This document shows positions 2,714 through 53,907 of a stretch of DNA of 64,000 bases, one piece after another; position 1 is the first letter of the stretch, and each line of letters starts with the position of its first letter. The DNA lies in contig JASTWF010000031.1 in NCBI GenBank assembly GCA_030390025.1, positions 4,712,001-4,776,000 on the forward strand. Direction: 5' to 3'. The notes under the pieces are model-generated. The model did not search any database, had not been told where the DNA came from, and saw only the letters and a program-made list of their open reading frames with translations. This DNA is from Squalus acanthias (taxonomy: Eukaryota). Made by a program: the position numbers and the translations under genes.

Positions 2714-4164
2714 TATTTGGGAAGCTACCCAGTTTACCATTAGCCTACTTTTGAGAACATTCAAACTGAGGTCCCAGAAGTGAGAAGACAGGGCTTAGTA
2801 TGCCAGACAGTCAGAGAGAGGTGACCCTTATACCCTCTGTTTGGGCTGAATTCAAACTAAGGTTGCAGAGATGACCGTAGTGCTTTAACCCACTGTATTT
2901 CTGCCATGAGACAGAAGAAAAACTATCCTGAGAAGGAGAAAGAGCTTCATTTCCATCCCACTTTTAAGTGAGTGTAACTCTAAGTGTACAGTAAATGTTT
3001 GGACGTGGGGGGGGGGGGGGGGGGCGGGGGGGGAGGGGGGGATGTGCAGCAATGGCTGGTAACATTTTATTAGTCAGCATTGCAAAAACTCTAAGATTTT
3101 TTAAATGTTTCTGCTTTTGGTTGAAAGGTGTTGCTGCTGGGTTTCCAACATGCACTAGCTGTGAAAGATATGCCTCTTTCTCTGAGTTATTGACCAAACT
3201 TCTCTATTCTTTCCTTTTATTAGAATGAACTAACACTAAACCTGGCTGCTTCACAGAGTGGCAGACACATACATCAATCACCAGGTATGTCATAAAGATG
3301 GAAAATAACTCCTAACAACACATACATAAGTGTGATTAACGATTTGTGAGAAGACAGTTCTCTAATAATACAACGTCTGTGAATTTCTCGTGTTAAACTT
3401 CGCTGATTCGAAGATAAGTTTTGACCCTCTGTGTGATTTTTTAAAAATGAACAATTTGCAAACAGACCTGTAAAGGGGAGATCGCTCTGTTAGGTACTGC
3501 AGAATCAAAAAACCATAGAAGTTTACAGCATTCAGTCCATCATGTCTGTGCCAGCTCTTTACTGGCACAATCCAAAAGTAATCCCATTGCCCTGTATCCT
3601 CCTCTGCTTCAAGTGTCTATCCACTTTTACAATTCTTCCTTGATCTGATCTCTTAACCATTAAAGTCACACTAGCCTAAAAAGTGTTGTTGTGATATTAG
3701 TGGATGAATGCTGAATGTGTTTGTATGACAGTCCTCTGTCTGCCATTTTAGCGCAGGCATTGACCTCTTATTTGAAATGAGTTAGCATCTCCACTGAAAT
3801 AGTGGACAAAGATAATCAGATCAACAAGCTCAAGAGTCCACCTACTAATATCACAAGCAGTCATTTAAAGGCCTGTCGCCTTCATAAAAAGAGTTTTTTT
3901 TATTTGGGGAAACAGGAGTGCCAGAAGACCCATGTGTCACTTCATCATAATGGCCTTGTGCCCCAGCAGCGAGATATATTTCAACACAATTTGCCTCACT
4001 GCATCAAGACAGGAAATTGTTCACCAAACAATTTTCAATGAAGGTGCTGCCCCTTTAAAGTAAAAGTAATTGTTCTGCTACCCCTATAGTAATTGGGTTT
4101 ATTCACCAAAACAAAGGTTAATATTTCCTTCATAGGTAGGATGAAATGAACAGCACAAGTAGAA

Positions 4165-7617: not shown

Positions 7618-7800
7618 NNNNNNNNNNNNNNNNNNNNNNNNNNNNNNNNNNNNNNNNNNNNNNNNNNNNNNNNNNNNNNNNNNNNNNNNNNNNNNNNNNN
7701 NNNNNNNNNNNNNNNNNNNNNNNNNNNNNNNNNNNNNNNNNNNNNNNNNNNNNNNNNNNNNNNNNNNNNNNNNNNNNNNNNNNNNNNNNNNNNNNNNNNN
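7618..7800. other. Assembly gap (183 N)
   Basis: Run of N. Confidence 1.
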
Positions 7801-8574: not shown

Positions 8575-9630
8575 TCACAAGATACACAAAGATGAGGAAG
8601 GCCATTTGGCCTATTGAAGCTCATCTATCCAGAAAGACTCCCTATCATAGCATCCAACTGTTTCTTAAAAGATTCCAGGGTTTTCCACTTTACTGCCCAA
8701 CACAGAAGTCCATTCCATGTGTTGACCACTCTTTGCAGGAAAAGGAAATTCCTAAGTGAATCAAGGGATATGGGGATAGTGCAGCAAGGTGGAGTTGAGG
8801 TAGAAGATCAGCCATGATCTTATTGAATGGCGGAGCAGGTTTGAAGGGCTGAATGGCCTACTCCTGCTCCTATTTCTTATGTTCTTATAGAAACATAGAA
8901 ACATGGAGCAGAAGTAGGCCATTCGGCCCGTCGAGCCTGCTCCACCATTCAATACGATCATGGCTGATCATCCAAATCCAGTACCCTGTCCCTGCTTTCT
9001 CACACAGAATCCCCATTGAGCCTGCACCGACACATATCCCACCCTATCCCCGTAACCCCACGTATTTAATTCCCCCTAACATATCCCATCCTATCCCCAT
9101 AACCCCACATATTTAATCCCCCCCTAACACTAAGGGTCAATTTATCATAGCCAAATCAACCTAACCCACACATTTTTGGACTGTGGGAGGAAACCGGAGC
9201 ACCCGGAGGAAACCCACGCAGACACGGGGAGAATGTGCAAACTCCACACAGACAGTCACCCAAGGCCAGATTCGAACCCGGGTCCCTGGTGCTGTGAGGC
9301 ACCAGTGCTAACCACTATGCCACCATGTTGCTCTATGTTCCTAACTGGTTTGAATTTGTGTCCCCTTGTCCTAATGTCATGCTTTAGTTTGAACTATTTT
9401 TTTCCATACCATTTATTATCTTATATACCTTTAAGGTCACTTCCTTTAAAGTCTAAAATGCCCAAGTTTCTCCTGTCTTTCCTCATGACTCAGTCCTGTG
9501 ACACTGGAGATCAGTCTCCGGACTCTTCTCTGTATTGCCTCCAGCACTTAATTGTCTCCCTGTCTCGGTGACCAGAACTGTATGCAAATACACAAGGTGT
9601 GATTGGAGCAGAGCACTATACAGTTCCAGA
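8575..9630. mobile_element. Nested repeat cluster: old CR1-like fragment (-) interrupted by tail-to-tail CR1 3' ends (about 8760-8995) and an HE1-type SINE
   Basis: CR1 tail motifs in both orientations meet near 8885; degenerate CR1 ORF2-like sequence resumes at about 9335-9625. Confidence 0.65.
9110..9328 (-). mobile_element. HE1-type V-SINE of sharks and rays
   Basis: V-domain GGACTGTGGGAGGAAACCGGAGCACCCGGAGGAAACCCACGCAGACACGGGGAGAATGTGCAAACTCCACACAGAC and a tRNA head (B box GGTTCGAATC on the minus strand). Confidence 0.88.
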
Positions 9631-13278: not shown

Positions 13279-13452
13279 TCTGCATCTGTGTTTGGGTTTG
13301 TGGGCTGAAGTGGGTGGGCACACCCAGAGGTCGCGGACTGGGCGTTGATGGACCAACCCTCATAGCTGTCTGACGGTACCGTTCCAACTCGCTCAGGCGG
13401 TCCGAGAAAAGTGTGCCAGGTTTTGTCTGGTCTTCGAGCTTTTGTCTGTGCC
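13279..13452 (-). CDS. runx3: RUNX3-like coding exon 4 (NLS and start of the Pro/Ser/Thr-rich region)
   Basis: cttttattgcag|GG CAC AGA CAA AAG...ATG CAG A|gtgagt; 174 nt; (R)[68 protein letters not shown] and PSTPSPR are RUNX3-like. Phase 1-1, in frame with exon 3 across a 35,170-nt intron. Confidence 0.93.
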
Positions 13453-14369
13453 CTGCAATAAAAGATAATATATTAAATTAAAATATTTTAGTCTCTTCAC
13501 TTTTCCCTCACGTTCAGCCACACTTCTGTTTGCCTCTACCACCTACCCTTCCAACAACTTTGAACCTGTTGTTGTACAAATTTTTGCGAAGGGAAGTAGG
13601 TATCTTTATAATTGGCTTGAGAGGGGAGTTGGAGGGAGGAAGGTAAATCCAGATCCTGACCTATCCCACAGTGCAGTAGAAATTAAAGCCAGATGCAAGG
13701 CAGATATTTTGTTGTCCAAATTCAAACAAAATATACCCACCTTGCATTGTATCTAATGTCTTTTGGAAGGGAACTGGCTCCTATTGCAATACGTGACAAG
13801 TGTTATCTGCCTAGTCTTTTCATTCAAGATGGCTACTTCGCTATACCCGTCCTTTTCTATAGCATTGTCTGTGGTCGGATGGAGAACCAGTCTAGTGCAG
13901 CATTAACAAACAACTCCACCTGCTGGTCCAGTAGAGAAATTACAAAAACGTACACAATGGAGGCTGGCAAAACCCCATGGCCATCTGTGAGACGGGTGCT
14001 TCCAGAACTGCCTCCCTTGTTTTGAACTGATTGACGTTTCATAACCTTGTTGTGTTGTGAGTACTTCAGGAGTGGCATGTTCATTATGCTGCACACTGCC
14101 ACAAATCCTGCCTGAGATTGACACAACCTGTCTATATCTGATGAGCCCTACTGAATATCATTGACTTCTTAAAGTAAAATCCATGAAACTTGATAAATTC
14201 AATCGGCAAAATGGCGATTTAGATATCCTCCTAAGAAGCATTTGCTCCATTTATTCAGTTTCAAAACTGAATCAGAACTACGAGCTTTATTTCTGCTCCG
14301 AAAGAAAATTATATCTAGTTTCTTAAACACCATGAATTAAGCAATTTTTCTATTTCATAACTGTCACCA

Positions 14370-26110: not shown

Positions 26111-27436
26111 TGAAAGTAGTCCGGGCTCTTGTTGCAAATATAAACTGTTGCTTAATATTTGAAACGATACATGAAATGTGGAGATGGGGAGAGGTTTCTT
26201 TTCTTCCCTGCGGGCCTGGAAAGAGACTGTAAAATGTCGTTACTTTTGGCCACGCTTCTTCCCATTCTGACGACCCATTCCTCCTCCATCCTCCAACTGG
26301 TTCTAAAGCACAGCAGCAGAACACTTTTCCCCCAACCGGGCAGTTCGAATTCTATCACTGCATCTCCCTTGCTGCATTTGAGAGCACATTTCATTGAATT
26401 TCAGCCAAGCTATTAGATGGCGCTCGATGTCACAGTAAAGGCAGATAGACAGCCCTGCCCGGTGTTGCAATTTCATGGCACACCTCGGCTTGGCACACAG
26501 TCCCAGAAGCCTACCTGTGAACCAATCTATTTTCAGTCGTACAGATCAACCAGGCCTGGTACAAAAATACATTGGCATTCTTGCATGCAACTGAGGGATT
26601 TAGAATGTCTCTGATTACATCGAGAGTCTTTTGGATGCATCTTCAAACAGCACAAGCAAATGTATCAGCAATACTTCATTATATTGACCAAGCCGAGGTG
26701 TGCCATGAAAATGCAACACCAGGCAGGGCTGTCTATCTGCCTTTACTGTGACATTGAGCTCCATCTAATAGCTTGGCTGAAATTCAATGAAATCTGCTCT
26801 CAAATGCAGTTTTGCGAATCTGATATGTATTTGGAAAGTTTGGCTGCACCTATCGCTTCACCCTGTGCAAACACTGATAACTGGAAAAGCAAACTGGTGC
26901 AGCCACAGAGATAATAATTCCCAATCTCACTGTTATTGTTTATATATATATAAATATATATCAATAAAAACGATATCCAATATGATCACAACCAGTGCTT
27001 AGTCATTGGTACATTTACATGTGCTGTAAAAAGTCTGGTCTGATAAGATCTGGGACACATGAACATAATATAAATACTTGAGCCTAGGTCCTGTGACTGT
27101 CTTCTATTGTCTTTCACCTTGCTGAATGGTCATGTTGTATCTTTGATTGTGGTAATAACCCTCTTGGTTGAAGAAGGCGGTCTGGAACTGAATGGTTTCT
27201 GAAGTGGAAGTAAAGGGTGGAGAAGGGAAAAATCACATTTTACTCGCATTTCCTGCACCCCAACCCTCACCCCCAATCTCTCGCTGTACAAATATATGCC
27301 CGAGCTCCCCTGCTTGTTATGTAAGTGCTGTAAACTGTCAAATTAATAAAAGATCTATCACCATAGCCTTAAAGTCACTGCTGCCAGTCATGTTTACAGA
27401 TAAATAGTGGGGGAGATTTACCAGGCTAATCCTTTA

Positions 27437-29427: not shown

Positions 29428-30128
29428 TTTTGTATGAGCTGTGTGTGTCCTGGCTCAATCAGTATGAAAGGCCTGTGCCAGTCAGAGGAAGTATATGGAG
29501 TCAGGAATGAAACAAGTTACAAAATGCAGGAGAAAATGTTTAAAAAAAAATGTTTTTTAATTCTTTATTTCTTCACGGTTAACTATTATTATCTAATTGA
29601 TTAATTCAGTGGGGGCTGATGGGCCCTTTCAGATTGTAAGGTATCTCCTTATATTCAGTTAAGCCACCTTGGCAAAATAAATAGATGTTATTTTATTAAG
29701 ACAAAGTATTTTAAAGTAAAATGAGAAGAAATGGACAAATCTTATGTACATTTCTTCTTTTGCATTTTCTTTCAATGAAGACAAGATTTGAAAATAAACC
29801 CTGCCCCTACCCCCCTATTTAAAACATTTTCTTTAGCCACAATGTGTGAGTGAGGGAATGTTTCAGCAAAACAACTCTCATTCACAGTGACATCATCTGT
29901 TTTGTTGGGAAAAACAAGCTTTACTAGCATGACTGTAGAGGCTTTTGCCTTCAGGCATATCTTTCAACTTTACCAGTAAAAGTTGATTTTACATTGGGAA
30001 TCTGGGTTAGTGCTTGCACAATTTGATTAGCCCTGCTTCTTGTAGTGGCGTGATGCTAGATTTTGCACTGCTTTGCACAACGGAGGTGTGTAAAATAATT
30101 TTTTTTAAATCTCAATGAATGTTTTAAT

Positions 30129-30556
30129 CAGCCTGGTCAGCTTGGCTCTGAGCCTGAAGGTTGTGGGTTCAAGCCTCACTCCAGGACTTGAGTGCATAAT
30201 CAGGGCCGACACTCCAGTTGCGGTACTGAGTGAGGGAGTGATGCATTGTCGGAGGTGAGATGTTAAACTGAGGCCCGATTTGCCCGCGGAAGTGTACATA
30301 AAAGATCTCATGGCACTATTTAAAGAGCAGGGAGTTCTCCTGGGGTACCGGCCAACATTCCTCCCTCACCCAACACCACCCAAACAGATTATCTGTTCAT
30401 TCATTCATTCGCTGCTTGTAGGACTTTGCTGAGTGCAAATTGGCTCCTACGTATGTCTACACAACAGCAGTGCTACACTCGAAAAAAAAATGTTGGGTGT
30501 AAAGCACTTTGCTGCTTCCTAAGGATGAGGTGCTATATAAATACAATTCTTTCTTT
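30129..30556 (+). mobile_element. Older Deu-domain SINE copy
   Basis: Same head, Deu block and tail order as the 7180 and 11306 copies, but more diverged. Confidence 0.78.
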
Positions 30557-33500
30557 AAATCAGAAATCTGTGACATTTCCCTGGCAAAGCAGCCATTGTG
30601 CTGGGGAGAAATATCCGTCTAAAGCATGAGCCCCATAACATCTGCTGCACCAGTCACACCATATAACATGGTTCATGTCCTCAGTATAAGGCAGTAGCTT
30701 ATACACCGATACAGCATTTCACATTTTTACTGCAGTAACTATTATAAAAAGAGTGGCTGTGACCTGTACGTGGTTAAGACTTATAACCTGGAATGTAATG
30801 GAAATTGACCCCAGCATGTGTTCTATTTATATTTTTACAAATTCTTGGCTGTAAATCTTTTAAGTCTTTGCTGAACTTTCAATTTGATGGGGAGTTTAGG
30901 AATAATGCCAATAAAAACCTCTTTATTTAGTTTTAATAAATGCACAATAGACTTGCTACCAGAGGTAGTCCAGGTTTTTGCTGGTACTGGCCTCTCCAAA
31001 GTGTGGCTTCGTGAAATGTTAGCATGGTGCAAAAGACTGACGTTAACTCTTGTTGCTACACTGCTGTTGAACTGCAGTAGGGCAGCATTGGATGGGCTGG
31101 TGGCATTGCAGCAAGTGCAACAGAAGTCTCGCCATGTAACAATGTAGATTAATACCACAGATGCAGCTACACCAGGGATTTTGTGATTACTGGACGTTTT
31201 CGATGCATTCACACTCCAACTGTAAGGTTGCTGTGAAGCAGTTTGGCTCTTGCACCAATGCTGCAGTTTACAGTGTAAATGTAGAAAGAATCTGAGTGAG
31301 ACTCTCTGGAGGAGTCACTTAGGGCCTTGTCACCTGATCTACACTCCAAGCACTTTCCGCTTCACATGAACACTAAGCTTGTGGAGTGTGAATGCATCCT
31401 ATAAGTCACGAGGCAAAGCTTCGGTGCTGCCTTTTGACAAAGAAATAACATTGTTAGAGACAACACAAACTGACTAAAGGGAACTTTTTTCAGCATCTGC
31501 CATTATAAAGCTTAACAGCACTCCATAGCACAAACCGTGGAATGGATCACTGAAGTATAATTAGCATTATTGTATCAAGAATCGCCAAGGGTGGTGGTAA
31601 ACCACTTCATTAAATTCAACATTTTGCACAGAGTTGTTCATGTAAAAATGCCCTTTTTTTGTAAACATGTTATAAATATAGTTTACAATGGAAGTACTAA
31701 GATAAGGTATCTCATTAATTGGGCCAATATTTCAGTTAAACTAGTAGTGTTCATTCGTGATTGGGTATCACTTGTTTGGTTTATTTCCCCATATGCATTT
31801 CATTATGTATTGTAACCAGTAAAATCTGTTATTGCCCACAGCTGCACACATCTGAAGTTGATGTCATTTAACTAAGGGTGGAGTTTGCTTGGCCAAATAA
31901 GAAGCCCTCAAAGCCTCAGTCATGCTTCCAGCCTTGCCTCCATACACCATCAAATACAAACATAGTTCTTTGAACTGCATGCAAGTACAACGCAAAGAAA
32001 TTAGATCAGAAGGGAAACAGGTTCCTCAGCTTTTTTTTTTAACGTTCAAAACAAACAGATAAAAAAATATGGAGAAATAAGATAAACTTAACCAAAAATG
32101 GTGATGCATTTAATCCTATAATCACAGATTTCCTTTGGTATTACTTGTGGGTAGGGTAGCCTGAGGCCTTGATCATGGTTGTGACCTGGTCTGCCCCATT
32201 ACGGTCACTGTTCAAATAAGGTGTCTAAATAGACAAAGCCAGCTAGTTGGAGCTGTTGGTAAACTCCTGGGATCAATCAGAGGGTAATTGTCAGATCTTG
32301 TAAATGTCTGGCTCCAGGTTAGAAGAACTCAACATGAAACGAGTTGGCGTTCTTTCTCTCTTTTTCTAAGGTCAGTTTGCATCTGTAACAAAGTGTGACA
32401 TCTGGAGTGTAATGGATGCGCGCTAGTCAAGACTCATAAAAAGAGAGATTATAAACCCCAGTAGGCCTGCTATGAGTACAGACTTAGTTTCTATAATGTT
32501 GGTCCAAAGAATTGGAGCATCTGCCTCCAAACCACAAGGTCAAATGGGATGGGAGAAGGGGAACATTCCACTATCCAGTCTCCAAGTTTAGTCCACAATG
32601 ACATAATTTCCCCATTTACTTCTTATTCCTTGCGCCAAGTTGATTGTGGAATGTAAATTTTAAAAATCTGGATTGAAATAGAATTAGTAACCGTAGTTTT
32701 TTGGGCTCCTATACTCCATCAATACAGTGTTTGCAATAATTCACAGGGATCTTTCTTTCATTGGTATGATTGCTCAGACTAAATTACCACTAACCTGTCA
32801 ATCAAGTGTGTATTTATTATATGTGTTTCAGGCCGTGCAGTACAGGGACACAGGTGACAGGCTCCCTCACATCTGCCACTCTACTTGAAGATAGGGTGGC
32901 AGGAAGTGAGATTGGCTGGGTTGGTGTAAATACTAAATTAAGATATTTATGCCATCACAAAAAAGCAGACCCAAATAAATCATCTTGAAAACATGCTCAA
33001 ACCCAACTAAATGATCACAAAAATGAATGCTCACCCACTAAGTGATGGTCAAAGTGGTCAAATAGTGAGTTTACCTCTGACCTTTTCTCTCTCTCTCTCA
33101 CACTCGAAGAACATTTGGTATCTACTTGCAGATTCCCTACAAAAGCACAGCTAAGATCAAGAATGCACCATGTGGTGAATAATGGTACGATTCCAGATAC
33201 TGCCTGTTGAATGAAATGCCTATACAGTGATCTTTGGGAATATATGTACACATTAAGATGAAGAATACCTCTGTGAACATTGAAACTTTGGTCGGTGAGA
33301 CAAAATAATAGATGTAGTGGAGACTTACTCTTGATATTCTGAAAAATAACACTGAGATACCCTCTCCTCTATTGAAGAGACAAGGTTCTCCATCATCTCT
33401 CCATTGTCTCTCCATCCCATTCTGATTGGATTTTAACCCAGCTCTCTGAGGTGACAGTATACTGCTCTAACAGAGGCAATGCAAATCTGAAGTGGTTTAT

Positions 33501-33837
33501 TCTGATAAATTCAAATATGGACTAATTTAGAATACTTCACATTTGGATGTGCCCAGCCCTTTAAAAAAAATGGCAACCTGCAAGTGCACAATTTACTGGT
33601 ATGTTTTTCTCTCTCTAAATATGATTTTATTTCTTGCACCAGGATAGATATTAGCAGCTAATGGGAAATGGCTGTTTAAAAGGTAAGCAGTGTTTTTATT
33701 CGCGGGTGTTTTAATGCCATAAGTCCATTTTTAAAATTGTTGTTTGGTAGGTATGTACCTAGTTTTGTTGGGTTTTCAGCAGTTGTGATTTAGTTGGTTC
33801 TGCATTTACTTTAGGCTGTCCTTATTAAAACACTAAA

Positions 33838-34105
33838 GGGCTGGATTTTGTCTTGGGGTCGGGTTGGGGTCGTGTAATCCGCATTTCGTGTTTCCCCCCC
33901 GACTCCAGATTAATGTGGATGCCTGATGCAATTTTCACTTAATTGGGCAATTGAGTTGGAGCATGTGGGAACCCATGAACTAATTAGTGTTTTCAGTCTG
34001 AAAGCCGCCTCTGATGATGTCATCATTGCTGACTGGCTAGTCTCAGAGACTGTTGGTGAGAGAGGACCTGCCTGGCTTTTGATGTGAGTGTGGGGGGGAG
34101 GAGGG

Positions 34106-34137
<32 letters not shown>

Positions 34138-34563
34138 TTGCCAAGTAAGTCCTCCCAGGCAGTCTCTGAAGACATTCAATGCAGCAGCATCAGAGGCAAT
34201 GTTCACCTTCATCACATCTCCATTGTAATAGTGGACTTGCAGCCGATAGTCAGCTATCCACTTGTGCTCCCGCCAGGTTTCACTGGAGTGTTTCACACCA
34301 GGCGTGCTTCACATCAAAAGAGGGTTAAACTAGCTACAGCGTTTCAAAATGGCATTACAGAGCCAATTTAGAGCTTGTTAAGGGCTTTAATGGCCTCTCC
34401 CGCCTCTTGGAGGCGGGACGGAATCGGGAACCCCGCGACTGATTATGTCAAAATTGCGTGGAGGCGGGATGGAGTCGGGATAGGGTCGGAAACCCCAAAC
34501 CCGCAAATTTAACCCCCCACACGCCTCCAAACCCGACTCCATGGGTCATTCAAAATCCAGCCC
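33838..34563. mobile_element. Non-autonomous DNA transposon, PIF/Harbinger-like
   Basis: Perfect 13-bp TIRs GGGCTGGATTTTG / CAAAATCCAGCCC; flanks AAA and TAA. Confidence 0.75.
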
Positions 34564-36626
34564 TAACAATCTGATGCTGATAGCTGTCAAGTGCAAAGTG
34601 CAGTTGACAAGACTCACATTATAATATGGGCTGTGCCTCTCACTCTGTCCATTAGAAGAGAGCAGTACACACAGACGTATTTACATCTATGCACAGAGCT
34701 GCTGTACCCTCGTGGCTGTTCTATTTAATGACAGGAGAGTGTGGCTGGTAAAGTCCGCTTCCTTACAAAGAAAGACTTGCATTTATATAGCTCCTTACTA
34801 CATCTTATAAATGTCTCAAACCATCACGCAATGAATTACTATATAGTGATCTTTCTTATGTAGGCAGATGTGGCAGTCATCTTATTCACAGCAAGATTCC
34901 ACCAACAATAATGCCATGGCTAAAAGAAAAGAACAAACTAAACAATAATGAGACTCCATGGATGAATAAAGCCATAAGGGAACAATTGAGGGTAAGGAAA
35001 GCGGCATACATTAAGTGCACAGACAAGCAGGGGAGTGCATGATAAGAGAGAATACGAAAAGATTAGGAAAGAAGTCAAAAAAACAATTAGGGAGGCAAAG
35101 AGGAATGATGAAATTGAATTATCAAGGAACATAAAACAAAATAGTAAAATGTTTTATAGGCACATCAATAAAAAAAGGAAGGTTGGGATGGGAATAGGGC
35201 CATTAAGGGATAGTCAGGATAATACCACAGGTAACAATAGAGAGATGGCAGAAATATTAAATAATTATTTTGCTTCAGTATTTACCGGGGAGATAGAACA
35301 GGTGGACATAACATTGGATGATGAGATTAGTAATGAGATAAGTGTATTTAAAATTTAAAAAGGGGAGATATTAAATAAATTAATCAAACTCAAAGAGGAT
35401 AAAACCCCTGGTCTGGATGGATTGCATCCACGCATTTTAAAAGAATCTAGGGAAGAGATAGCAGAGGCATTACTACGCATATTTAATAATTCGTTAGAAA
35501 AAGGTATAGTGCCAGAGGACTGGCAGATAGCTAACGTAATACCGATATTTAAGAAGGGGGATAGAATATGTCCAGGGAATTATAGACCAGTCAGCTTAAC
35601 ATCGGTGGTAGGAAAAATAATGGAATCCCTACTAAAGGAGAAAATAGAAGAACATCTAGAAACCAAAAATATAATAATGAATAGTCAACATGGATTTCAA
35701 AAGGGAAAGTCTTGCTTGACCAACCTTATTGAATTTTTTGAAGAGGTAACAGAGAGAGTAGACAATGGTAATGCAGTAGATGTAATTTATCTGGGTTTTC
35801 AAAAGGCCTTCGATAAGGTACCTCATAATAGACTGATGAACAAGGTCAGAGAATGCAGAGTCAGGGGACAAGTAACAGAATGGATTGCTGGCTGGCATCA
35901 GGACAGAAAGCAGAGAGTAGGAGTAAAGGGTAACTATTCACAGTGGCAGAAGGTGGGCAGTGGTGTTCCACAAGGATCAGTGCTGGGACCACTGTTCACA
36001 ATTTACATTAACAATTTAGACTTAGGAATCAAAAACACAATTTCTAAATTTGCGGATGACACCAAATTGGGCGGGATAGTCAATACTGAGGAGGACTGCA
36101 ACAAGTTACAGGAGGACATTAATAAACTTGCAGAATGGGCATATAATTGGCAAATGAAGTTCAACACAGATGTATGTGAGGTATTACATTTTGGTAGCAA
36201 GAATAGGGAGATCACTTATCACTTGGAGGGTGTGAGTCTAGGTGGGGTAGAGGAACAAAGGGATCTAAGAGTACAAATACACAAATCATTAAAGTTGCGA
36301 CACAGGTTAGCAACGCCATAAAAAATGCAAACCAAGCACTAGGGTTTATTTCTAGAGGGATAGAACTGAAAAGTAGGGAAGTTATGCTAAATCTGTATCG
36401 AACCTTGGTTAGATCACACTTAGAGTACTGCGTACAGTTCTGGTCACCATGTTATAAAAAGGATATAGAGGCACTGGAGAGGGTGCAGAGAGGATTTACA
36501 AGGATGATACCAGAAATGTGAGGGTATACATATCAGGAAAGGATGAACAGGCTGAGTCTCTTTTCTCTTGAAAAAAAATGAGAAGTCGCACAACACCAGG
36601 TTATAGTCCAACAGATTTATTTAATT

Positions 36627-36664
36627 TTACAAGCTTTCGGAGCTGTCGCTCCTTCGTCAGGTAA
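36627..36664 (-). ncRNA. Minimal type-I hammerhead ribozyme, mirror copy (sense to runx3 pre-mRNA)
   Basis: Exact reverse complement of 37393-37430. Confidence 0.85.
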
Positions 36665-37392
36665 GTTAGCAATGAGAGAATCTCCCAGAATTCACAATTT
36701 AAACCCAGACAAAATCTATTCACATTATTCGCTACAACAAAGAGCACAGCCAAGACAATGAGATGTGTCCCAGGGGGTCCAACGTGTCAAACCACCTGCT
36801 GGCTGCATATCCTGTCAATTTGTGTTCTTGTGTTAGCCTTTTTAAAAAAAAAAAAACACCTGGAAAGACCGGCCATGATGTCAAGTCACGTTCTGTATCG
36901 TGACATGAACCCAATATCGCGATTGAGGCCATCCTCATGAGTGCGGAACTTGGCTATCAGTTTCTGCTCTATGATTTTGCGCTGTCGTGTATCTCGAAGG
37001 CCGCCTTGGAGAACGCTTACCCGCGTTACTGCGGGTAAGCGTTCTCCAAGGCGGCCTTCGAGATACACGACAGCGCAAAATCATAGAGCAGAAACTGATA
37101 GCCAAGTTCCGCACTCATGAGGATGGCCTCAATCGCGATATTGGGTTCATGTCACGATACAGAACGTGACTTGACATCATGGCCGGTCTTTCCAGGTGTT
37201 TTTTATTTTTTTTAAAAAGGCTAACACAAGAACACAAATTGACAGGATATGCAGCCAGCAGGTGGTTTGACACGTTGGACCCCCTGGGACACATCTCATT
37301 GTCTTGGCTGTGCTCTTTGTTGTAGCGAATAATGTGAATAGATTTTGTCTGGGTTTAAATTGTGAATTCTGGGAGATTCTCTCATTGCTAAC

Positions 37393-37430
37393 TTACCTGA
37401 CGAAGGAGCGACAGCTCCGAAAGCTTGTAA
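37393..37430 (+). ncRNA. Minimal type-I hammerhead ribozyme (Penelope-associated)
   Basis: UUAC-CUGACGA-A-GGAGC(GACA)GCUCC-GAAA-GCUU-GUAA: core CUGANGA and GAAA, 5-bp stem II, stem I UUAC/GUAA, palindromic AGCU in place of stem III. Predicted cut after 37426. Confidence 0.85.
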
Positions 37431-38294
37431 AATTAAATAAATCTGTTGGACTATAACCTGGTGTTGTGCGACTTCTCATTTTTGTCCACCCCAGTCCAAC
37501 GCCGGCATCTCCACATCATGACCTCTCTTGAAAAAAGGCTGTGGGGTGACCTAATAGAGGTCTTTAAAATTATGAAAAATTTTGATAGCGTGGATACAGA
37601 GAGAATGTTTCCACTTGTGGGGAAGAGCATAACTAAAGGCCATCAATATAAGATAGTCACCAAGAAATCCAATAGGGAATTCAGAAGAAACTTCTTTACC
37701 CAAAGAGTGGTGAGAATGTGGAACTCGCTACCACAGGGAGTGGTTGAAGCGAATAGTATGGATGCATTTAAGTGGAGGCTGGACAAGCATATGAGGGAAA
37801 AGGGAATAGAGGGTTATGCTGATAGATTTAGATGAGGAAAGACGGGAGGAGGCTCGAGTGGAGCATAAACGCCGGCATGGACTGGTTGGGCCGAATGGCC
37901 TGTTCCTGTGCTGTATATCCGATGTAATCCTATGTAAATAGTTAATCAGATTTTAGTACTGTTAATTTAAGGAGAAATATTAGCCAGGACAATAGGAAGA
38001 CTTCCTGCTCTTCTTCAAATAGACTCCATTCTAAGTTTATAAAGTGCCCAGAGATCCAACAGATTCGTTACAACGGTTTTTAGTTCTGGCTTCACATCAA
38101 TTTGGAGCTGTTTGTCATTTTACGAGAAGCCCAAGTAGTACGAGAGGCCTTTTGGAGGGGGTGTCACATCATTTTGCTTTAGTGTACTCAGGACGGTGTC
38201 AGATTGGGGCTGGATTCCTTAGCTATACTGCCAATTTCACATCAATGTACACCTTAAATTGTTTTGCATTACCATGAAAGTGGCAGTATAACTG

Positions 38295-38470
38295 GAGTTT
38301 AGTTTGATTAGTGCTTAAGAAATGGTTTAGTTGGTTTTCTGTTTTTGTAATGGTTAAGTTGGAGTTCTGATTGTTTAATTGATGGTTTAGTTGGGTTTCT
38401 GTTTGTGTTAATGATGGTGAGTTGAGGTTCTGTTTGTGTGGTTTAGTTGGTTTTGTGTTCATTTGTCTGA
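38295..38470. repeat. Degenerate G/T-rich tandem repeat, unit about 27-33 nt (ATGGTTTAGTTGGTTTTCTGTTTG)
   Basis: Five to six imperfect copies read directly. Confidence 0.7.
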
Positions 38471-39297
38471 TAGTTGGGTATGTGTCCATATTTTCTGATG
38501 TGCTGACACATGGTTGGGGTACAGGAATGCATCTATTTCCCCTGAAATCCTACTGCGGAAGATACATCTACATCTGTGTAGGTGATGTATGTGAGTCCCT
38601 GATGGTCTGTAATCAAATTCCATGGTCTCACCATTGGCTTCTTGTTGAAACGTCAAATTGACAGAATCCAAATTTTGCCCCCCCCCAGCCCCCACTTGTC
38701 ACTTTGAATATAAAGTTCAAATTTATCCAGATTCTCACCACTAATTACCACACATTTCACCATGGTCCTCATTAGAGAAAGAACTCACATTCCAAAAATG
38801 AATTAATTGAAAAATGAGCAGGTAACAATGGTGCATATTATGTATGAAAACATTGAACAAATTACCAGTGATTATTTTTTTTTACGTATCATGCATTATT
38901 GGAAAATAGATACAAAACCCAGATGTATGCAGCATGAGAACTTACTTTACAAAAATGTTAGGACTGTGTGTTATATGAGTATGCATTGTACAGCAAAAGT
39001 TATGGATGTGAATTAACTGCACTGCGTCACTCAGGCCTTCCGCCAAAAATATCAGCAAATAAACTTTTAAAGAAACTGTCAGAGCAGGTTTGGTGTTGGA
39101 GTGGGTTTGATGACAACTGTTTTACTGCCTTAAGCATAGTTTTTGATCAGGTGATCTTTTAAGTACAAAGGAGACATGCAGGTTTATTGGGCTCTGTATT
39201 TACATATGTGTAATATGTAATAAATCAGAGCAGACACATATGCAAATCATATATAAACACATTGCAAACATAAACGCATCATTGTTCAGTCCCAATT

Positions 39298-39700
39298 AGG
39301 ACATAGAAACAGGAATCGGCCATTCAGCCCCTCGAGCCTGTTCCGCCATTCAATTAGATCATGGCTGATCTGTATCTTAACTCCATCTACCCGCCTTGGT
39401 TCCGTAACCCTTAATACCCTTGCCTAACAAAAATCTATCAATCTCAGTTTTGAAATTTTCAATTGACCTAGCCTCGACAGCTTTTTGGGGGGCTAGAGTT
39501 CCAGATTTCCACTACCCTTTGTGTAAAGATGTGCTCTGACATCACCCCTGAATGGACCAGCTCTAATTTTAAGGTTGTGACCCCTTGTTCTGGACGCTTG
39601 GACCAGAGGAAATAGTTTATCTCTATTTACCTTATCAAATTCTTCAATCATCGTAAACAATTCTATTAGCTCACCCCTCAATCTTCTATATTCAAGGGAC
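39298..39700 (-). mobile_element. CR1-type LINE 3' fragment
   Basis: SLEYRRLRGELIELF...LFPL...RTRGHNLKIR plus CR1 tail. Confidence 0.88.
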
Positions 39701-40998
39701 AGTGATGGTCTGGCCATTCTTGAGTTACACCAGTTTGACTATATCCAACCTTTATTGTCAACTCAGCCAGCTGCTTAGATAATAGCTAACTGGTGCAGAA
39801 ATACCATGAAGCCCTCAAAGGGTTCATTTTCATTTTACTTTAATTTCTATTTTTATTTCTGGTTCATATCCAGTTTCATCAATGCTGCAACAGTGAGAGG
39901 TCACCAGGAAGTGCTTAATCTCCAAGACTAGGTTCAGGCCTATGAGTATGCAAAGCTTTGTGCAGCGTGCAACCGCTGACATTCTCTCTTGTACAACAGC
40001 TGAAAATAATATTTTAACACCAGAGAACAGGAGTTTACACAACTGGAGGATGCTTTCCTTTGTATACTGTCATCTCATTAACAGGCCACACTGTAATTGT
40101 GCAGTGTGTATTTAAGTGTGCAAAAGTTACTACAGTGCTCAAAGGGTTAAGTAGCTTTCTACCACAGCTTTGTACTTCAGTGTTAAAAAAAAACCTAGCA
40201 GGCGCGGTTTCTTAACGGAAAAACATAGATGATAATCATCTCCTCAAAGCGACGTGTTACATTCGGAGTAACATTTCTTTATATCTGTGTGTTACGTGCT
40301 TAACCCTTTTACTACGAGGTGTGATTGGCAACTTTCACAAATACTCTCACGCTTTGCTCTGTCACACGCTTGAGCAGTGTTTTACTTTTAAATATACAGT
40401 TTTAAGAATTAATAGAACTGGAGAAATATTTTTTTTTTAAATCACAAAATATTTCTTAGCCACTAAATAAACTAGAAGAAAAAGTTAACTTGTCCTTTTA
40501 CATTCTGCAGCTGCACTTCAGTGCTCTTCGAGTTCTTTTTAAAACTCTTCTGAAAGCTGAAGTTGAGCATTATCTTGCATCATATGCTTTACCAGCAAGG
40601 GGCCATTTATTTTTTCCTGTTTTAAAAATTGACACTTGCGTCAGTAAACGAGCTTGTGCAATTGACAGTACAGATGGATCTTTTAATTTTAATTCATGCC
40701 TTGTAGGATAGGGATTGGTCTTTGTGGGTCCCCACCAAATGACACAATGCAGCAAAAGCATCATTTTGCTCAGGCAATATAGTCATCACTGAGCCGAAGG
40801 TGGTCATTATTGACCCAGAACTGCTGTTGTCCTCAACATTTAAAGAAAATGATGTTATCCTTGTGTTTGCCAGTTCACAGTTCTCAGCACCAATACCTCT
40901 ATTTTGTTGTGATGCGGAGATGCTGGTGTTGGACTGGGGTGGACAAAAATGAGAAGTCGCACAACACCAGGTTATAGTCCAACAGATTTATTTAAAAT

Positions 40999-41034
40999 TA
41001 CAAGCTTTCGGAGCTGTTGCCCCTTCGTCAGGTA
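40999..41034 (-). ncRNA. Minimal hammerhead ribozyme, mirror copy (sense to runx3 pre-mRNA)
   Basis: Reverse complement of 41055-41090. Confidence 0.78.
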
Positions 41035-41054
41035 GAGTTACAATAGAGTAACTC

Positions 41055-41090
41055 TACCTGACGAAGGGGCAACAGCTCCGAAAGCTTGTA
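41055..41090 (+). ncRNA. Minimal hammerhead ribozyme (Penelope-associated)
   Basis: UAC-CUGACGA-A-GGGGC(AACA)GCUCC-GAAA-GCUU-GUA; stem II kept through a G-U pair, stem I only 3 bp. Confidence 0.78.
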
Positions 41091-41354
41091 ATTTTAAATA
41101 AACCTGTTGGACTATAACCTGGTGTTGTGCGACTTCTATTTTGTTGGGTTTAGCACAGTGTTTTAAACTTGTTGACTGCCACTCATTTAGAACTCCCTCA
41201 GTGGTCTAATATCAAGTAACCGAATGCAAGCAAACCTGGGTAGAGTATTCAGTTATTGGTTTGGTTGATGGGGAATAATTAAATGCATTATTAGTCTTGG
41301 AATGTTTCATGAAAGACTGGTGCAGCTCGCCACATGCACTAGATTGATTATAAT

Positions 41355-41962
41355 TTCCACCTCCGTAATATCGCCGGTCTCCGCCCTTGCCTCAGCTCAT
41401 CCGCCGCTGAAACCCTATTCCAACGCACTCCTGCTGGCCTCCCACATTCCCCCCTGCGTAAACTTGAGGTGATCCAAAACTCAGCTGCCCGTGTCCTAAC
41501 TCGCACCAGGTCCCGTTCACCATCACCCCTGTGCTCGCTGACCTACATTGGCCTCGATTTCAAAATTCTCATCCTTGTTTTCAAATCCCTCCATGGCCTC
41601 GCCCCTCCCTATCTCTGTAATCTCCTTCAGCCCAACAATCCCCCGAGATATCTGCGCTCCTCTAATTCTGCCCTCTTGAGGATCCCTGATTATAATCGCT
41701 CAACCATTGGTGGCCGTGCCTTCTGTTGCCTAGACCCTATGCTCTGGAATTCCCTGCCTAAACCTCTTCGCCTCTCTACCTCTCTTTCCTCCTTTTAGAT
41801 GCTCCTTAAAACCTACCTCTTTGACCAAGCCTTTGGTCACCTGCCCTAATTTCTCCTTATGTGGTTCGGTGTCAAATTTTTTTTTTGTCTTATAATACTC
41901 CTGTGCAGCGCCTTGGGATGTTTTACTATGTTAAAGGCGCTATATAAATACAAGTTGTTGCT
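41355..41962 (+). mobile_element. L2-type LINE 3' fragment
   Basis: IQNSAARVLTRT...FKILILVFKSLHGLAPPYL...GGRAF...LWNSLP and tail AAGGCGCTATATAAATACAAGTTGTTG. Confidence 0.9.
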
Positions 41963-43979
41963 GTTGTCATTTTGCTGCATAACCAGCATATTAACTCACT
42001 AACATTCTCTCCTACTAGTAACCATCTTGAAAACAGTACAATTTCAAAGGTATGTAGCATTCTACAAATGAATGGTATATGGAGCATACCCATAATGTGG
42101 TTTGCAACAGCATAATCAGGAGTAGTTCTGAAATGGATCACTCAGGCTGACAACCACCTTCATGCCTAAACTTAAAACTATTATCACTATTATGGTCAGC
42201 CTATGTGGGATTTTTCCTCCCTCTGTTTATAATTTTCTGCGCTCCCTTGAATATGTTCCTTCTAATTGTCCTGCACTTTGTCTACAAATGTGAAATGGAT
42301 AATAAACGGCACCAGAGACAAGTGAACTTCAGAGCTGCCAAAAGACAGGGCAGTGAGACAGGCGGGTGAGCAATAGTGGGTATTACAATAGTGGAAGTGG
42401 GTGGTGTTATCAGTTTGATTGCTTGAAATGGCAACACTTTCATCTAATTTGCTATTGCCCTGCCCTCTTGCAAGGAGCTGGTGTTTTGCAACCATCTTAC
42501 CAATTCAGCCTGAAATCAGTGCACCCGATTTGCTTGCACTCTCACTTCAACCTGTGCAGAGACCAAGGACAACATACATGGGGAGCTCCCTCAGTAGTAT
42601 GAATCTGTTCACAAAAGCTTTATTGAAAAAAAACTCACTTTAAGATCATGCAACAGCCACTTTTTCAAAAAACAGGAATATCCTCAATTGGTCAGCTGTA
42701 CGAGGAAAGATATTGTTGGCATCAATAATTTACTTCCCTTTAATGCACTTTTAAAAATGCTGATTTCTTTTTATGATGGAAGTACATTTATTTGCAATAA
42801 TTTCTCATTTAAAATATTTGGACGGTGAAATAAATGCTTCCACAAACTAAACATATTAAAAGTAATTGCACTGCCCTGTTAAACCCTGATGGAAGCGATA
42901 ACTTTTTAGCCAAGAAATGTTATGTTTGGGTCATCATTTTCCAGAAAGATGAAGATACAAAGTGCTCCCATGATGGCTCAGTGAGCGATCACTGAGTACC
43001 TGAGCCATTCAGTCAAATGACACGCACCATCCTGACTTGGACATCTGTTCCTTCAAGGTCGCTGGGTCAGGGTTCTGGAATTCCCTACCTAACACTATTG
43101 TGGGAGTGCCATCACCACAAGGGCTTCGGGCACCAGTAGGGATGGGCAATTAATGCGGCCTTTCCAGCGTTGCCCACATCCCAAGAACCAATTTTTAAAA
43201 AAACGGTCCCAGGTTTAATCCCTTATCTTTACTACGTGAGCTGATCTCACCTGGGGGCATTGGTGAGGATTATCAGCCAGAGCTGACATGCGCAAATGTG
43301 GATGCCAGGTGAGGGCAGAAGCTGGTCATGCTGCAAATAGCCTGCTGACACTCACTATCAGGGCTAAAACATGAACAATGGTTCACCAGAGGGAGACCAA
43401 TACCCAGCAAGAAGTCAATACATTGAGGAGAGGAAGGAAAATGAGGAGAAACTGACAGGGGTAAAAAGAAGCCAAGCAACCAAGACGTTTTGAGGCCTAT
43501 TTAACCATTCATGCAGTGTATTCAACAAAAACAGCAAAAACTCTCACCATGGCAGGCTCCATTATTTACAGTGAGATGACACTGTCAAAATCTACTGCTA
43601 TCATACGGTAAATTCTGGCAAAAACATGGCTATGTTTAGTGGGATGGGTTTTAAAATCTGAATAATTAGGAATATTTTATGTGTGGGATTTTGTATTGAA
43701 GTCCTGTCTTTTAATCATAAGTTCTAACAGGAGTAAATAGAATGCATTTTTAGACCTGGATATGAATTATATTTATCTTTCTATTTTATTGACACTACAA
43801 TGGTCATTGTTCCTCTAAACGTTCCTCTCTTACTCCTTAGCTCTAAATATCATATCCTGAATACAGTTCGATGAAGTAAGGCGGGAGGAGGCACCCATGG
43901 AGCATAGAAACACGCCTCCTTCTGTGCTGTAAATGCTATGTGCTCTCCCTCCTCTTGTATTCTTATTGTGTTGGAATCT

Positions 43980-44545
43980 GGGGGTAGATTTTTCCTCCGT
44001 GCAGTTTTTGGGCGCTTAGCCGGCAGAGCGAGCTAACCGGCCTGCCCATAATGTCGATGGGGCACCCGGTCTATTTTGAAGGCCAGGCCGGGCCTCATTA
44101 ACGTAGGACTGGCAGGTTGCAGGTGAAAAATGGGGGGCGGGGGGGGGGAGACCCATTGCAGCAGTGGCTCGGGTTGTTTTTGTGGAGCTCGGGGAAGCAT
44201 TTCTTCTCCTCCCGGCCCCACAAAAATAATTTAAGTCTTACCTTCTGGGCTCCTCTTCCGCCGGACCACCAGCTGAGACTGCGTGGAACGTGCAATGGCG
44301 CACGCCCCATTGGTTGAGTCCTAAAAAGGCAACCGTGGTCCGATGTACGTCATAGGACCCCAGTTTGCATCTTAACAGAGCCTACCACCTGACTCGGGCG
44401 AGCTCTCTGGCCACCCAGCAAGCCCTAGGGAAGATTGCGTTGACCACATCGTCAGCAGGAATCGGACGCCATGTCATTCCCCACCATTTTAGGAGCACTA
44501 CCACCCCACTTGCACCCAGCAGATGGCCTCACAATCTCCGCCTAG
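43980..44545. mobile_element. GC-rich non-autonomous DNA-transposon-like element related to 4165-5503
   Basis: Starts GGGGTAGATTTT; shares the internal TGTACGTCATAGGACCCC motif; right end degenerate. Confidence 0.55.
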
Positions 44546-44804: not shown

Positions 44805-44961
44805 GGTCGAGAAATTTGTCTCGGGAGGTGGTGCAAAACAGGCATTATTGGACCGGCCGCCCGTTATACACAATGGAACTGAATATCGGGCGTTGCGTAT
44901 AACGGGCAGCTGATCCAATACCGCCCGTTTTGCGCCACCGCCCAAGATTAATTTCTAGGCC
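44805..44961. mobile_element. 157-bp hairpin MITE with 3-bp TSD
   Basis: TTT|GGTCGAGAAATT...AATTTCTAGGCC|TTT; about 69-bp imperfect inverted arms. Confidence 0.8.
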
Positions 44962-45993: not shown

Positions 45994-46750
45994 CGGGAAA
46001 AATTCAGTTGGTTTGTGCCTCCCATTAGCGCCTTAAGAGGGCGCTAATGGGGCGCAAAGCAACTAGCGCCCGGGTGCGGCGCCGCCCACGCCTCCCGCGA
46101 AATTCAGCGGGAGGTTAGCGGCGGTGCTAACCGGTAGCGCCCTGTGGTGCTGTGCTGCCGGCGATGACGTCATCGCCGTGCGCAGCGCCCCGCTCACGCT
46201 CCGGCCGCGATCTTCGGTAGCGCCCCTTGACTTACCGCCGGACGCTATGTCCGACGGGGTCAGGGGGGCCTACCTGCGGCCGGGGCGGCGCTAGTTAAAG
46301 GGGAGGTGGCGGGCGGCCATTTATGTTGCTGGCCGCCTGCCAGCACCTGCCTCTGTTGCTGTCCCCAGCCCCCGTGAAGCCCCCCCTGCGAAGTGCCGAC
46401 TGCGCTCCAAGAGCCTGGCACTTCTCTTGAGTGCCGGGCTCTTTTGCCGGCACTCCCGATCCCCGGGGGCCCAGCTGGGCTCCGGTTCGCGCTGCGCAAG
46501 GCCCCTCCCCTTTAAGAAGGGGAGGAAGGCCTGCAATACCGCGGTGCGACGTGCCGCAGCGATGTAGCGCCACGATATTGACTCGCAGTGCCCCAAGAGG
46601 GATGCGGGGTGCTTCCAGTAGCGCCCCGCTTCCCTCTTGGGGCGCAACCACTCAATTTCCGGCGCAGGGGCGCTAATTTTTATGGGGAACTAAAAGTAGC
46701 ACCCCGGCAAAGTTAGCACCCCAAAGGGGGCGCGACTCAATTTTTCCCCC
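45994..46750. mobile_element. Very GC/CpG-rich non-autonomous DNA transposon
   Basis: TIRs GGGAAAAATTCAGTTG / CGACTCAATTTTTCCC; many TAGCGCCC subterminal repeats. Confidence 0.72.
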
Positions 46751-48509: not shown

Positions 48510-48755
<246 letters not shown>

Positions 48756-52804: not shown

Positions 52805-53907
52805 TGAACTGACTGAAGTGCCATCAAGCTTGTGTTAAGTTGTGGTAAACAGGGGTTCCACTCAACAGGAACTGGCTTCTATTTCTGATACAATGTAAGA
52901 AGCGTCATATATCGTCATCAGCCAAAACCCACAGAAAATGGGTCACTCGAGTGTTTAAGTAATTATCCCAGGATTCACATTAACTAAAACATCTTGGAGG
53001 AGTCCTATTTATTACACAATAAATATGATAGGTTCTAAGTAGACAGATTTTGTTAAAAATATAAAGTTTATGTCTGCAAGAGTGGGTACGTCTTAACATA
53101 GCAGGTTGTGGTGTAGTGCCTCTTAACATGCTGTGTTTACGACAGATAACTGCATTCTGGCAGGATGATGCTTTTTGTAAGGCTATTATGAACATTAACT
53201 TATTGAGGTTGACTATTGAAGTAGTAATAGAATAGTAAGGCCATTGAACAAACAACATTAATCCCAATATTAAAAACTGTTCCACAATACTAGGTGGATG
53301 TAACATAATTGGCATCTGGATAGATTTTATATTGATGCAATTTTTACATAAAAAATAATGATGTGCAACTGCATCTTCATTTACAGATTATTTTTGAAAG
53401 AACAAAGTTCAGGAAAAACAATACTTTTTTTTTTAAACTGTCAAAACTGCCAAAAAGCAGAAACAATCCCTGCATTTTCTATTTGAAAGCTTTCTGAAAG
53501 TTTTTTCTTCTAACTTCAACTTTCCAAAATAATACCCACTTTTGAGCCAAGAAATCAAGTACTATATTTACAAATAATTTTAATTGCGGAAACTGTGCCA
53601 TGTCAAGTTCAGTTGATTGCTCAAAATGTCCAACTGTGTATAATTGTATGGTGTATAATTGCAGGTTAGGTGTTTTTTATACAGTGTTCACCTGGAGTTT
53701 TTGTTTTTCCAAGTTACTAGTTGTTTCACATTTTTATGTTCAAACACTGCAATTATATAAGTAAGTAAAGTATTTTCCATATTTGCCTAAATCTGTTTTA
53801 CTGTTTTGGAATGGAATAAAAAAAACTATTGCAACCATTAAAAGGCATGAGTGGAACTCCTCTTTACCACAACTTAACACAAGCTTGATGGCACTTCAAT
53901 CAGTTCA
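52805..53907. repeat. 60-bp inverted repeat pair (52805-52864 and 53848-53907), 3 mismatches, 983-nt spacer
   Basis: TGAACTGACTGAAGTGCCATCAAGCTTGTGTTAAGTTGTGGTAAACAGGGGTTCCACTCA and its near reverse complement. Confidence 0.92.

Follow-up and report, generated by a model that had tools for sequence, protein, structure and literature searches.

A whole-insertion palindrome of a Penelope-like element in a runx3 intron of Squalus acanthias, with paired minimal hammerhead motifs and a probable origin by cDNA fold-back

Penelope-like elements leave insertions of a characteristic form. Copies that are truncated at the 5′ end and adjoined by an inverted copy, with a tail of 30–40 nt at one end, are described in PMC8557442, which calls the making of these inverted copies and tails undefined. 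Palindromes at the inverted junctions are reported in PMC3846280, where head-to-head is the commonest arrangement, target duplications are 8–10 bp long, and self-priming is proposed. Pairs of minimal hammerhead motifs on opposite strands, about 100–700 bp apart, are described in PMC4209133, and a lizard element cuts and extends both target strands, with two start sites that bound an AC-rich tail (PMC11167929). Here we analyze an insertion of this kind, designated element 1, which lies in an intron of runx3 in a 64,000-nt stretch of Squalus acanthias DNA (assembly GCA_030390025.1, contig JASTWF010000031.1, positions 4,712,001 to 4,776,000, forward strand; hereafter the window, in whose coordinates all positions are given). 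Its form, with an inverted copy, a tail and a target duplication, is already published, and the locus is one more ordinary case. A literature search, covering main texts and few subscription papers, returned nothing beyond PMC3846280 on Penelope insertions that are palindromic throughout or on such insertions in sharks, and figures of them may exist in print. We consider it probable that element 1 is a 5′-truncated, likely young insertion of a shark Penelope-like element, that its mirror arm was made by fold-back of the cDNA, and that its hammerheads are locked in the resulting hairpin and likely do not cut runx3 RNA.

The insertion as a whole is a palindrome, with 451-bp arms and a 6-nt loop (Table 1). 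Alignment of the left and right arms gives 451 matches, no mismatches and two gap columns, which represent a 2-nt indel in an A-tract. A preliminary description of this DNA had proposed just such a near-perfect palindrome, with two arms of about 451 bp and a 6-nt loop, and had placed it at 36574–37523; the arms are as described but end at 37483, and the last 40 nt are the tail of the right arm. It had also described the insertion as nested in a long interspersed nuclear element (LINE) that resumes after a target-site duplication, which is borne out by the reading frame and by a 13-nt direct repeat. The frame of the host LINE reads RLSLFSLEK to the left of the insert and SLEKRLWGDLIEVF to the right, and the duplication, with sequence TCTCTTGAAAAAA, is the longest exact direct repeat in the flanks. 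The LINE, which we take to be a CR1 element, encodes a reverse transcriptase that matches Pfam RVT_1 (E 7e-29).

Contigs from four runs (X1, X5, X6, and X18) were compared with positions 36985–38484, a stretch that runs from the left arm (40 nt) through the loop and the right arm to 961 nt past the tail. X1 and X5 are marked as DNA of organism A and come from two samples and two studies; X1 may be the source sample. In organism B, 36 contigs of the LINE family run on before 37524 with sequence like the left flank in the window, which supports the boundary of the duplication. Contig depth drops toward the single-copy level past about 37935, indicating the end of the host LINE. Some LINE-family contigs in all four runs have three extra bases (AAG) at 37534, and relative to these the window copy is one codon short within the right-hand duplication.

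Table 1. Positions of the insertion, its host LINE, related palindromes and neighboring runx3 exons in the window
Feature	Position	Strand	Remarks
Host LINE, upstream part (degenerate ORF2)	34996–36576	+	start approximate; antisense to runx3
Host LINE open reading frames (ORFs)	34996–35358, 35359–36321, 36207–36521	+	
Host LINE, 3′ part	37524–37937	+	end approximate; frame resumes
Target-site duplication, left copy	36564–36576	+	13 nt; last 3 A's also match element end
Target-site duplication, right copy	37524–37536	+	13 nt
Element 1, left arm	36574–37024	−	inverted, without tail; copy of element 3′ end
Element 1, loop GTTACT	37025–37030		6 nt
Element 1, right arm	37031–37483	+	sense 3′ end of element (ORF end, 3′ untranslated region / pseudo-long terminal repeat (pseudo-LTR))
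Element 1, tail	37484–37523	+	40 nt, right arm only, no left counterpart; 70% A+C
Last GIY-YIG endonuclease codons	37029–37169 (mirror 36886–37023)	+ (mirror −)	93% over 44 aa to P0002 residues 599–642
Minimal hammerhead	37393–37430	+	descriptor scan; core at 37397; predicted cut after 37426
Minimal hammerhead, sense of runx3 pre-mRNA	36627–36664	−	core start 36660; predicted cut after 36631
Element 2, fold-back insertion of same family	40910–41137	−	tail about 40910–40951; arms 40952–41041, 41048–41137
Element 3, palindrome of same build, unrelated sequence	2549–2713	−	tail about 2549–2581; arms 2582–2644, 2651–2713
runx3 exon upstream of host intron (end of Runt domain)	48623–48728	−	100% over 35 aa to P0017; GT donor; intron start 48622
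runx3 81-nt exon downstream of host intron	27118–27198	−	in-frame, after Runt domain

Sequence comparison identifies each arm as the 3′ end of an endonuclease-bearing Penelope-like element, of the Neptune/Nematis type by the definitions given in PMC8557442. Each arm codes for 43–44 residues, which match the C-terminus of P0002 at 93% identity; this Heptranchias protein of 643 aa combines a reverse transcriptase with a GIY-YIG domain. P0002, which lies outside the window, matches RVT_1 (E 5e-9) and has ADKG and YIDD motifs, a CX4CxxC linker and the CCHH GIY-YIG motif; the 45-aa endonuclease piece in the window gave no Pfam match by itself. A search with the arm peptide returned 16 homologs among 21 candidates, and those with names are all from sharks. 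Seven homologs were examined. The CCHH pattern is present in six, the exception being a Ku80 isoform that holds only the end, and the CX2-5CxxC linker is present in three (P0002, P0006, and P0009), while of the other four two begin past the linker, one is a chimera and one has its last Cys altered. This linker between reverse transcriptase and endonuclease is described as common to Neptune and Nematis and absent from Penelope/Poseidon (PMC8557442). The match to this family protein, together with the tail, the inverted copy and the duplication, supports the Penelope-like origin and the end of a GIY-YIG-like ORF in each arm that had been suggested earlier. The family is very abundant in organism A: the summed contig depth in X1 is about 0.4–5 million over the arm and 13 on the unique flank, a ratio of some four to five orders of magnitude that is not a copy number. 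A 24-nt pseudo-LTR pattern had no matches in viral contigs and none in metagenome contigs.

Other classes of element were considered and rejected. Miniature inverted-repeat transposable elements and fold-back DNA transposons derive from a transposase element, and their symmetric terminal inverted repeats lie immediately within the target duplication; here the ends are asymmetric (a 40-nt tail) and the arms derive from a reverse transcriptase–endonuclease ORF. Non-LTR retrozymes are non-coding hammerhead units in head-to-tail tandem (bioRxiv 10.64898/2026.07.22.740005), whereas the arms of element 1 are head-to-head and carry endonuclease codons. An autonomous full-length copy was also rejected, as tblastn of P0002 matches the window at residues 599–642 only, twice. 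Predicted shark isoforms of Ku80 (XRCC5), FAM204A and FAM210B (P0001, P0014, and P0015) match the endonuclease end of the element, as a result of either exonised copies or faulty annotation. Just upstream of the hammerhead, at 37354–37387 on the plus strand and mirrored in the left arm, a TTTAAAT sequence lies about 30 nt ahead of an initiator-like CTCATT. The consensus is weak, but this could be a candidate pseudo-LTR promoter, and transcription from it would run outward in both arms.

The window contains two further palindromes built like element 1. The palindrome is therefore not exceptional, as had been thought at first, and its form is in any case published (PMC8557442, PMC3846280, and PMC4209133). 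Element 2 belongs to the same family and has 90-nt arms with one mismatch, a 6-nt loop (AATAGA), hammerheads at 41031 (minus strand) and 41058 (plus strand), and a 12-nt duplication at 40898–40909 and 41135–41146; on each side it turns 16 nt ahead of the hammerhead core. In a BLAST search of the window, element 1 matches only itself and element 2, so that both family copies in the window are palindromic. Of 203 contig joints, the 15 listed include none that changes strand. Element 3 has 63-nt arms with one mismatch, a 6-nt loop and a 17-nt duplication at 2532–2548 and 2711–2727, its arm and loop limits having been read by eye. No other copy of it is present within the window, and it likely represents another Penelope-like family.

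The three palindromes carry a record of how they were made. The arms of element 1 differ at 0 of 451 positions, and the arms of element 2 share five differences from element 1 over 86 nt (four substitutions and one inserted base), which implies one template for both arms. At the turn, family contigs (26 in X1 and 20 in X5) end loose before 37029, and their upstream sequence, which differs from the window, consists of normal family codons. This break implies that the tail-bearing cDNA extends 2 nt into the loop, where the bases CT (37029–37030) continue the family sequence, and that the other four (GTTA) are non-family. On the tail-bearing strand of element 2, the sequence AATAGAG, made up of the loop and one base more, is similar to the family continuation AATGAGAG, and the loop is closed by one G-C pair. 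The loop is thus 6 nt long in all three palindromes, with family-like bases on the tail-bearing strand in both of the two that could be checked. At the tail-less end, 3 nt are common to target and element in all three cases, those of element 1 being in an A-run, where chance agreement is larger. Between elements 1 and 2, the position of the tail-less end differs by no more than 7 nt.

These features are most simply explained if cDNA synthesis was primed at the tail end and stopped early, the cDNA snapped back, and a second start site served to capture the other target end. By analogy with in vitro work on the lizard element, the reverse transcriptase–endonuclease would nick both strands of the old LINE about 10–13 nt apart, and cDNA would be primed from the right-hand nick, at the end of the RNA tail. 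The element copy ends at 37029, inside the endonuclease codons. There the cDNA end would gain about four non-family bases, snap back over the 6-nt loop and copy itself. The left-hand target end would then anneal by 3-nt microhomology at a second, tail-less start site, and repair would fill in the palindrome. Self-annealing of small hairpins at L1 sites provides a precedent for the snap-back (bioRxiv 10.1101/2024.12.14.628481).

Head-to-head arms could in principle be obtained in two other ways. In twin priming without fold-back, cDNA synthesis begins from both target nicks, one at each start site, and a head-to-head junction then unites the two products. This fits the lizard protein, which cuts and extends both strands, has two start sites and is predicted to be a dimer (PMC11167929), and it accounts for the tail at one end and the 3-nt microhomology at the other. 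Separate RNAs from a diverse family should nevertheless give differing arms and unequal truncation, whereas the arms are identical in element 1, share their five differences in element 2, and end within 6 nt of each other in all three palindromes. The only variant left is double copying of one RNA molecule, and twin priming is on balance unlikely. Alternatively, the hairpin was already present in the template, either as an antisense or palindromic RNA that primed itself or as a palindromic source copy transposed as a unit. This predicts identical arms, and self-priming of an antisense template is what PMC3846280 proposes for head-to-head palindromes. We judge it decidedly unlikely, given that elements 1 and 2 turn about 355 nt apart in the element and have different loops, a pattern that favors a separate turn in each insertion over a single palindromic source.

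Assembly artefacts are known to include long perfect palindromes; in the present case a fold-back chimeric read would have had to mirror a single arm. No contig listed in the four runs spans the 36985–38484 locus or either outer junction, and one X1 contig (depth 30) differs at the loop, where it is without base 37028. A chimeric read would, however, have mirrored the flank too, and here the flanks differ and the LINE is collinear across the 13-nt duplication. Further evidence against an artefact comes from the tail, which only one arm has, from the indel between the arms and from the two shorter sister palindromes of like build. The loop base 37028 is also covered by contigs in two samples from two studies, at a depth of 70.9 in X1 and 174.5 in X5 (and 0 in X6 and X18). 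We attach almost no probability to an artefact.

Fold-back would also make the arms identical at birth, and their present identity therefore bears on age. Zero substitutions in 451 positions puts the divergence of the arms below 0.66% (95% bound). The window differs from two runs of organism A at 3 of 1172 nt (0.26%), a rate at which zero arm substitutions has P 0.31; the flank of organism B differs by 2.1%, and at that rate P is 7e-5. Among the differences listed, 0 of 10 in the arm have more than 89% of the family depth differing from the window base (X1 or X5), and 4 of 19 in the 3′ part of the LINE have more than 93% of the X1 family depth differing. These values hint that youth suffices for arm identity, because fold-back gives identical arms at birth and 0/451 fits within-species variation. 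The preliminary description had taken the palindrome to be either very young or homogenized from arm to arm; the first alternative is retained and the second is not needed.

An older palindrome held identical by arm-to-arm conversion would also show arms that match save for the A-tract indel, and both arms do have bases that most family contigs lack (at 37142, 84–89% differ in X1 and X5). Shared minority bases can, however, be subfamily variants, the two shorter palindromes each retain one unrepaired mismatch, and an absence of substitutions is what a young fold-back is expected to show. Conversion is accordingly given very little credence. In organism B, the 572 nt of orthologous flank differ at 12 places and by one insertion of 17 nt, there is no contig cover at 37235–37384 at 90% likeness, and no contig joins across the site. 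Insertion after the split of organisms A and B would fit these observations, of which the gap in contig cover is no proof.

The host gene is runx3, as previously suggested. Exons of a runx gene are found on the minus strand at about 58478, 56565, 48728, 27198 and 13453. The exon at 13283–13453 is 100% identical to a Scyliorhinus torazame protein named runx3, and in a protein search with this exon the top 6 of 48 matches are chondrichthyan runx3 or runx3-like. Element 1 lies within the 21.4-kb intron 48622–27199, where the donor is 11.1 kb away and the next acceptor 9.4 kb. The 81-nt exon that follows this intron is present in two of the five chondrichthyan runx3 proteins compared: it occurs in Scyliorhinus and Cetorhinus isoforms and not in the Pristis, Heterodontus and Callorhinchus proteins compared, and from these sequences is likely to be a shark cassette exon.

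A descriptor scan for hammerheads found four cores in the 64-kb window (37397 and 41058 on the plus strand, 36660 and 41031 on the minus strand), all in elements 1 and 2, and none in each of 100 dinucleotide-block shuffles. The two cores of element 1 are on opposite strands, 737 bp apart. The plus-strand motif consists of stem I (TTAC/GTAA), the core CTGACGA with one extra A, stem II (GGAGC/GCTCC) with a 4-nt loop, GAAA, a palindromic AAGCTT and the CTT triplet. It has the core boxes, the extra base before stem II, the G10.1–C11.1 pair, the palindromic 15.2–16.2 and the NUH triplet, and its helix III is reduced to the palindromic AAGCUU. By these features the hammerheads are minimal type I motifs, a type that requires a dimer. 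Rfam gave no hammerhead family at E ≤ 1 over 30000–44000 (11 matches) or at E ≤ 10 over 37370–37460 (3 matches), and the miRNA-like scores that it gave on hairpins, all under the gathering score, were rejected as generic hairpin matches. The minimal hammerheads proposed within the terminal repeat are thus present, with the CUU triplet ending at 37426 as stated; the core in each arm is intact in all its bases, with the qualifications that there is no Rfam match and that the two motifs are on opposite strands. Among the family variants listed, 4 of 12 indels fall at 37410–37414, in or beside loop II, and no substitution falls in 37393–37430, a hint that the family keeps the hammerhead structure. 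Element 2 retains stem II through an A-U to G-U change.

Whether these motifs would act in runx3 RNA was assessed by folding. Each strand of each element carries one hammerhead, preceded by its own antisense copy; in the minus-strand transcript of element 1 the antisense copy is at index 194–223 and the motif at 960–989. On either strand, the antisense arm would be made before the lone hammerhead, which is predicted to be duplexed and to have no dimer partner. Forcing stems I and II costs 66.5 kcal/mol in the full transcript and 0.8 in a single arm. In the full transcript, the pair probabilities of both stems print as 0 and the motif is fully paired in the predicted hairpin, compared with 0.50–0.63 for stem I and 0.92–0.93 for stem II in a single arm. 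For element 2 the penalty is 70.9 kcal/mol.

The preliminary description had suggested a self-cleavage site in runx3 pre-mRNA. All core bases are intact and a single arm folds both stems, and the two same-sense motifs on the minus strand, 4.4 kb apart, could pair via AAGCUU, as judged from a cofold of two isolated motifs. Both, however, follow their own antisense arm. The published activities of such motifs are also low: a single minimal motif gave no cleavage and dimers gave little (PMC4209133), only one of nine Xenopus dimers cleaved, the other eight being inactive (bioRxiv 10.64898/2026.07.22.740005), and the lizard hammerhead is reported to cleave only with the element's protein, with no in vivo RNA reads starting or ending at the cut site (PMC11167929). 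Cleavage of runx3 pre-mRNA is modeled as unlikely, because there is one dimer-needing motif per strand, placed after its own antisense copy, with a penalty of 66.5 kcal/mol. That the hammerhead both cuts the pre-mRNA and affects runx3 expression is very improbable.

Several points weigh against the interpretation preferred here, in addition to the lack of spanning contigs. The X1 contig without base 37028 raises the possibility of a 5-nt loop in a copy or allele, and a constant 6-nt loop, seen in three palindromes, may not hold; one of these, element 3, has no family assigned. One locus cannot separate fold-back of a single cDNA from two copies of one RNA molecule, and PMC3846280 explains such palindromes by self-priming of an antisense template and not by cDNA fold-back. 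A further 109 differences lie beyond those considered, so that the argument for youth is a hint. As regards the hammerheads, the folding energies are equilibrium values that ignore proteins and kinetics, and the lizard motif does cleave with the element's protein. The runx3 strand holds two same-sense hammerheads (41031 and 36660), and a transcript starting inside an arm would carry a hammerhead free of its antisense copy.

With the hammerheads buried, what remains for the RNA is the hairpin itself. As part of a 21-kb intron, this 450-bp structure would be removed by splicing and would probably be nearly neutral, and ADAR would be likely to act on it. Of the 910 nt that the palindrome yields as a minus-strand transcript, 256 are A. 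According to PMC5625713, elephant shark brain shows hyper-editing at 200,171 unique sites, palindromic frog Harbinger repeats with short loops are heavily edited, and lizard Penelope is massively edited. By analogy, editing of the present hairpin is plausible. Run X18, guessed to be RNA, covers the family arms and not the unique intron flank, and so is uninformative on the runx3 locus; it has A>G or T>C changes at 21 places and G>A or C>T changes at 27, proportions that do not differ from those in the DNA run X1 (30 and 52; Fisher P 0.46). Among 24 runs listed, none is recorded as RNA with the sequence, which has no bearing on expression.

The single locus is of little import, because there are very many copies of the family, the nearest splice sites are 9–11 kb away and the insertion is likely neutral. 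The class of palindromes is more useful, given that the junctions record how Penelope-like elements make inverted copies and tails, that palindromic copies date themselves, since their arms start identical, and that they are candidate ADAR substrates. Junction statistics over the class could test how these elements make their second strand. We put forward only tentatively the wider proposal that Penelope-like retrotransposition in sharks routinely yields whole-insertion palindromes of one stereotyped form, by snap-back over a loop of about 6 nt and capture of the second target end by 3-nt microhomology at the tail-less start site. The antisense arm would then always precede the hammerhead, so that each copy disarms its own ribozyme, and in introns the palindromes would be a main source of perfect double-stranded RNA for ADAR. 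If true, this could also explain the heavy editing of lizard Penelope, and the second-strand step would be readable from the junctions of thousands of copies.

Other repeats were seen in the window. Inverted pairs noted by eye lie at 8803–8972, 26372–26809 (122-nt arms 194 apart), 44810–44956 and 46574–46659 (imperfect GC-rich palindromes), with one pair 1 kb apart at 52805–53907 (60-nt arms). All but the first of these are likely to be DNA-transposon derivatives. At 8752–8972, two short repeat copies in opposite orientation form an imperfect 170-nt palindrome, with related pieces at 6285, 14380, 27434 and 39296. A GC-rich tandem array at 4035–5163 has long repetitive ORFs in several frames, and a 183-nt run of N at 7618–7800 is an assembly gap distant from the palindrome.

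In comparison with known systems, the hammerheads share with the minimal motifs of PMC4209133 the extra base between 9 and 10.1, the G10.1–C11.1 pair, the palindromic 15.2–16.2 and a 4-bp helix I, as well as the occurrence in pairs on opposite strands at about 100–700 bp. Helix II is 5 bp here and 7–8 bp in Schistosoma, and the accessible text of that paper neither names sharks nor discusses burial by an inverted arm. With ADAR-edited palindromic repeats (PMC5625713) the insertion shares a short loop and, by prediction, self-folding. PAc, a Poseidon element of Anolis carolinensis (PMC11167929), shares two reverse transcription start sites with an AC-rich tail between them, beyond the 3′ side of the hammerhead, and an AT-rich target. 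PAc is without the CX2-5CxxC linker, whereas the shark family protein has the Neptune/Nematis linker; PAc starts without homology, whereas the tail-less ends here have 3-nt microhomology to the target; and the accessible parts of that account do not describe fold-back products. Inverted duplications associated with L1 (bioRxiv 10.1101/2024.12.14.628481) have in common a small hairpin, with microhomology of about 2 bp, that primes an inverted duplicate at a retrotransposition site. They are rare and copy host flank, in contrast to the recurrent copying of the element itself within a clean target duplication. The closest likeness is to canonical endonuclease-bearing Penelope-like insertions (PMC8557442 and PMC3846280), with which element 1 shares 5′ truncation, a head-to-head inverted copy, a tail at one end, a target duplication and a junction palindrome. 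In the insertions described there the junction palindromes are 18–38 bp long within longer units, whereas here the whole insertion is palindromic.

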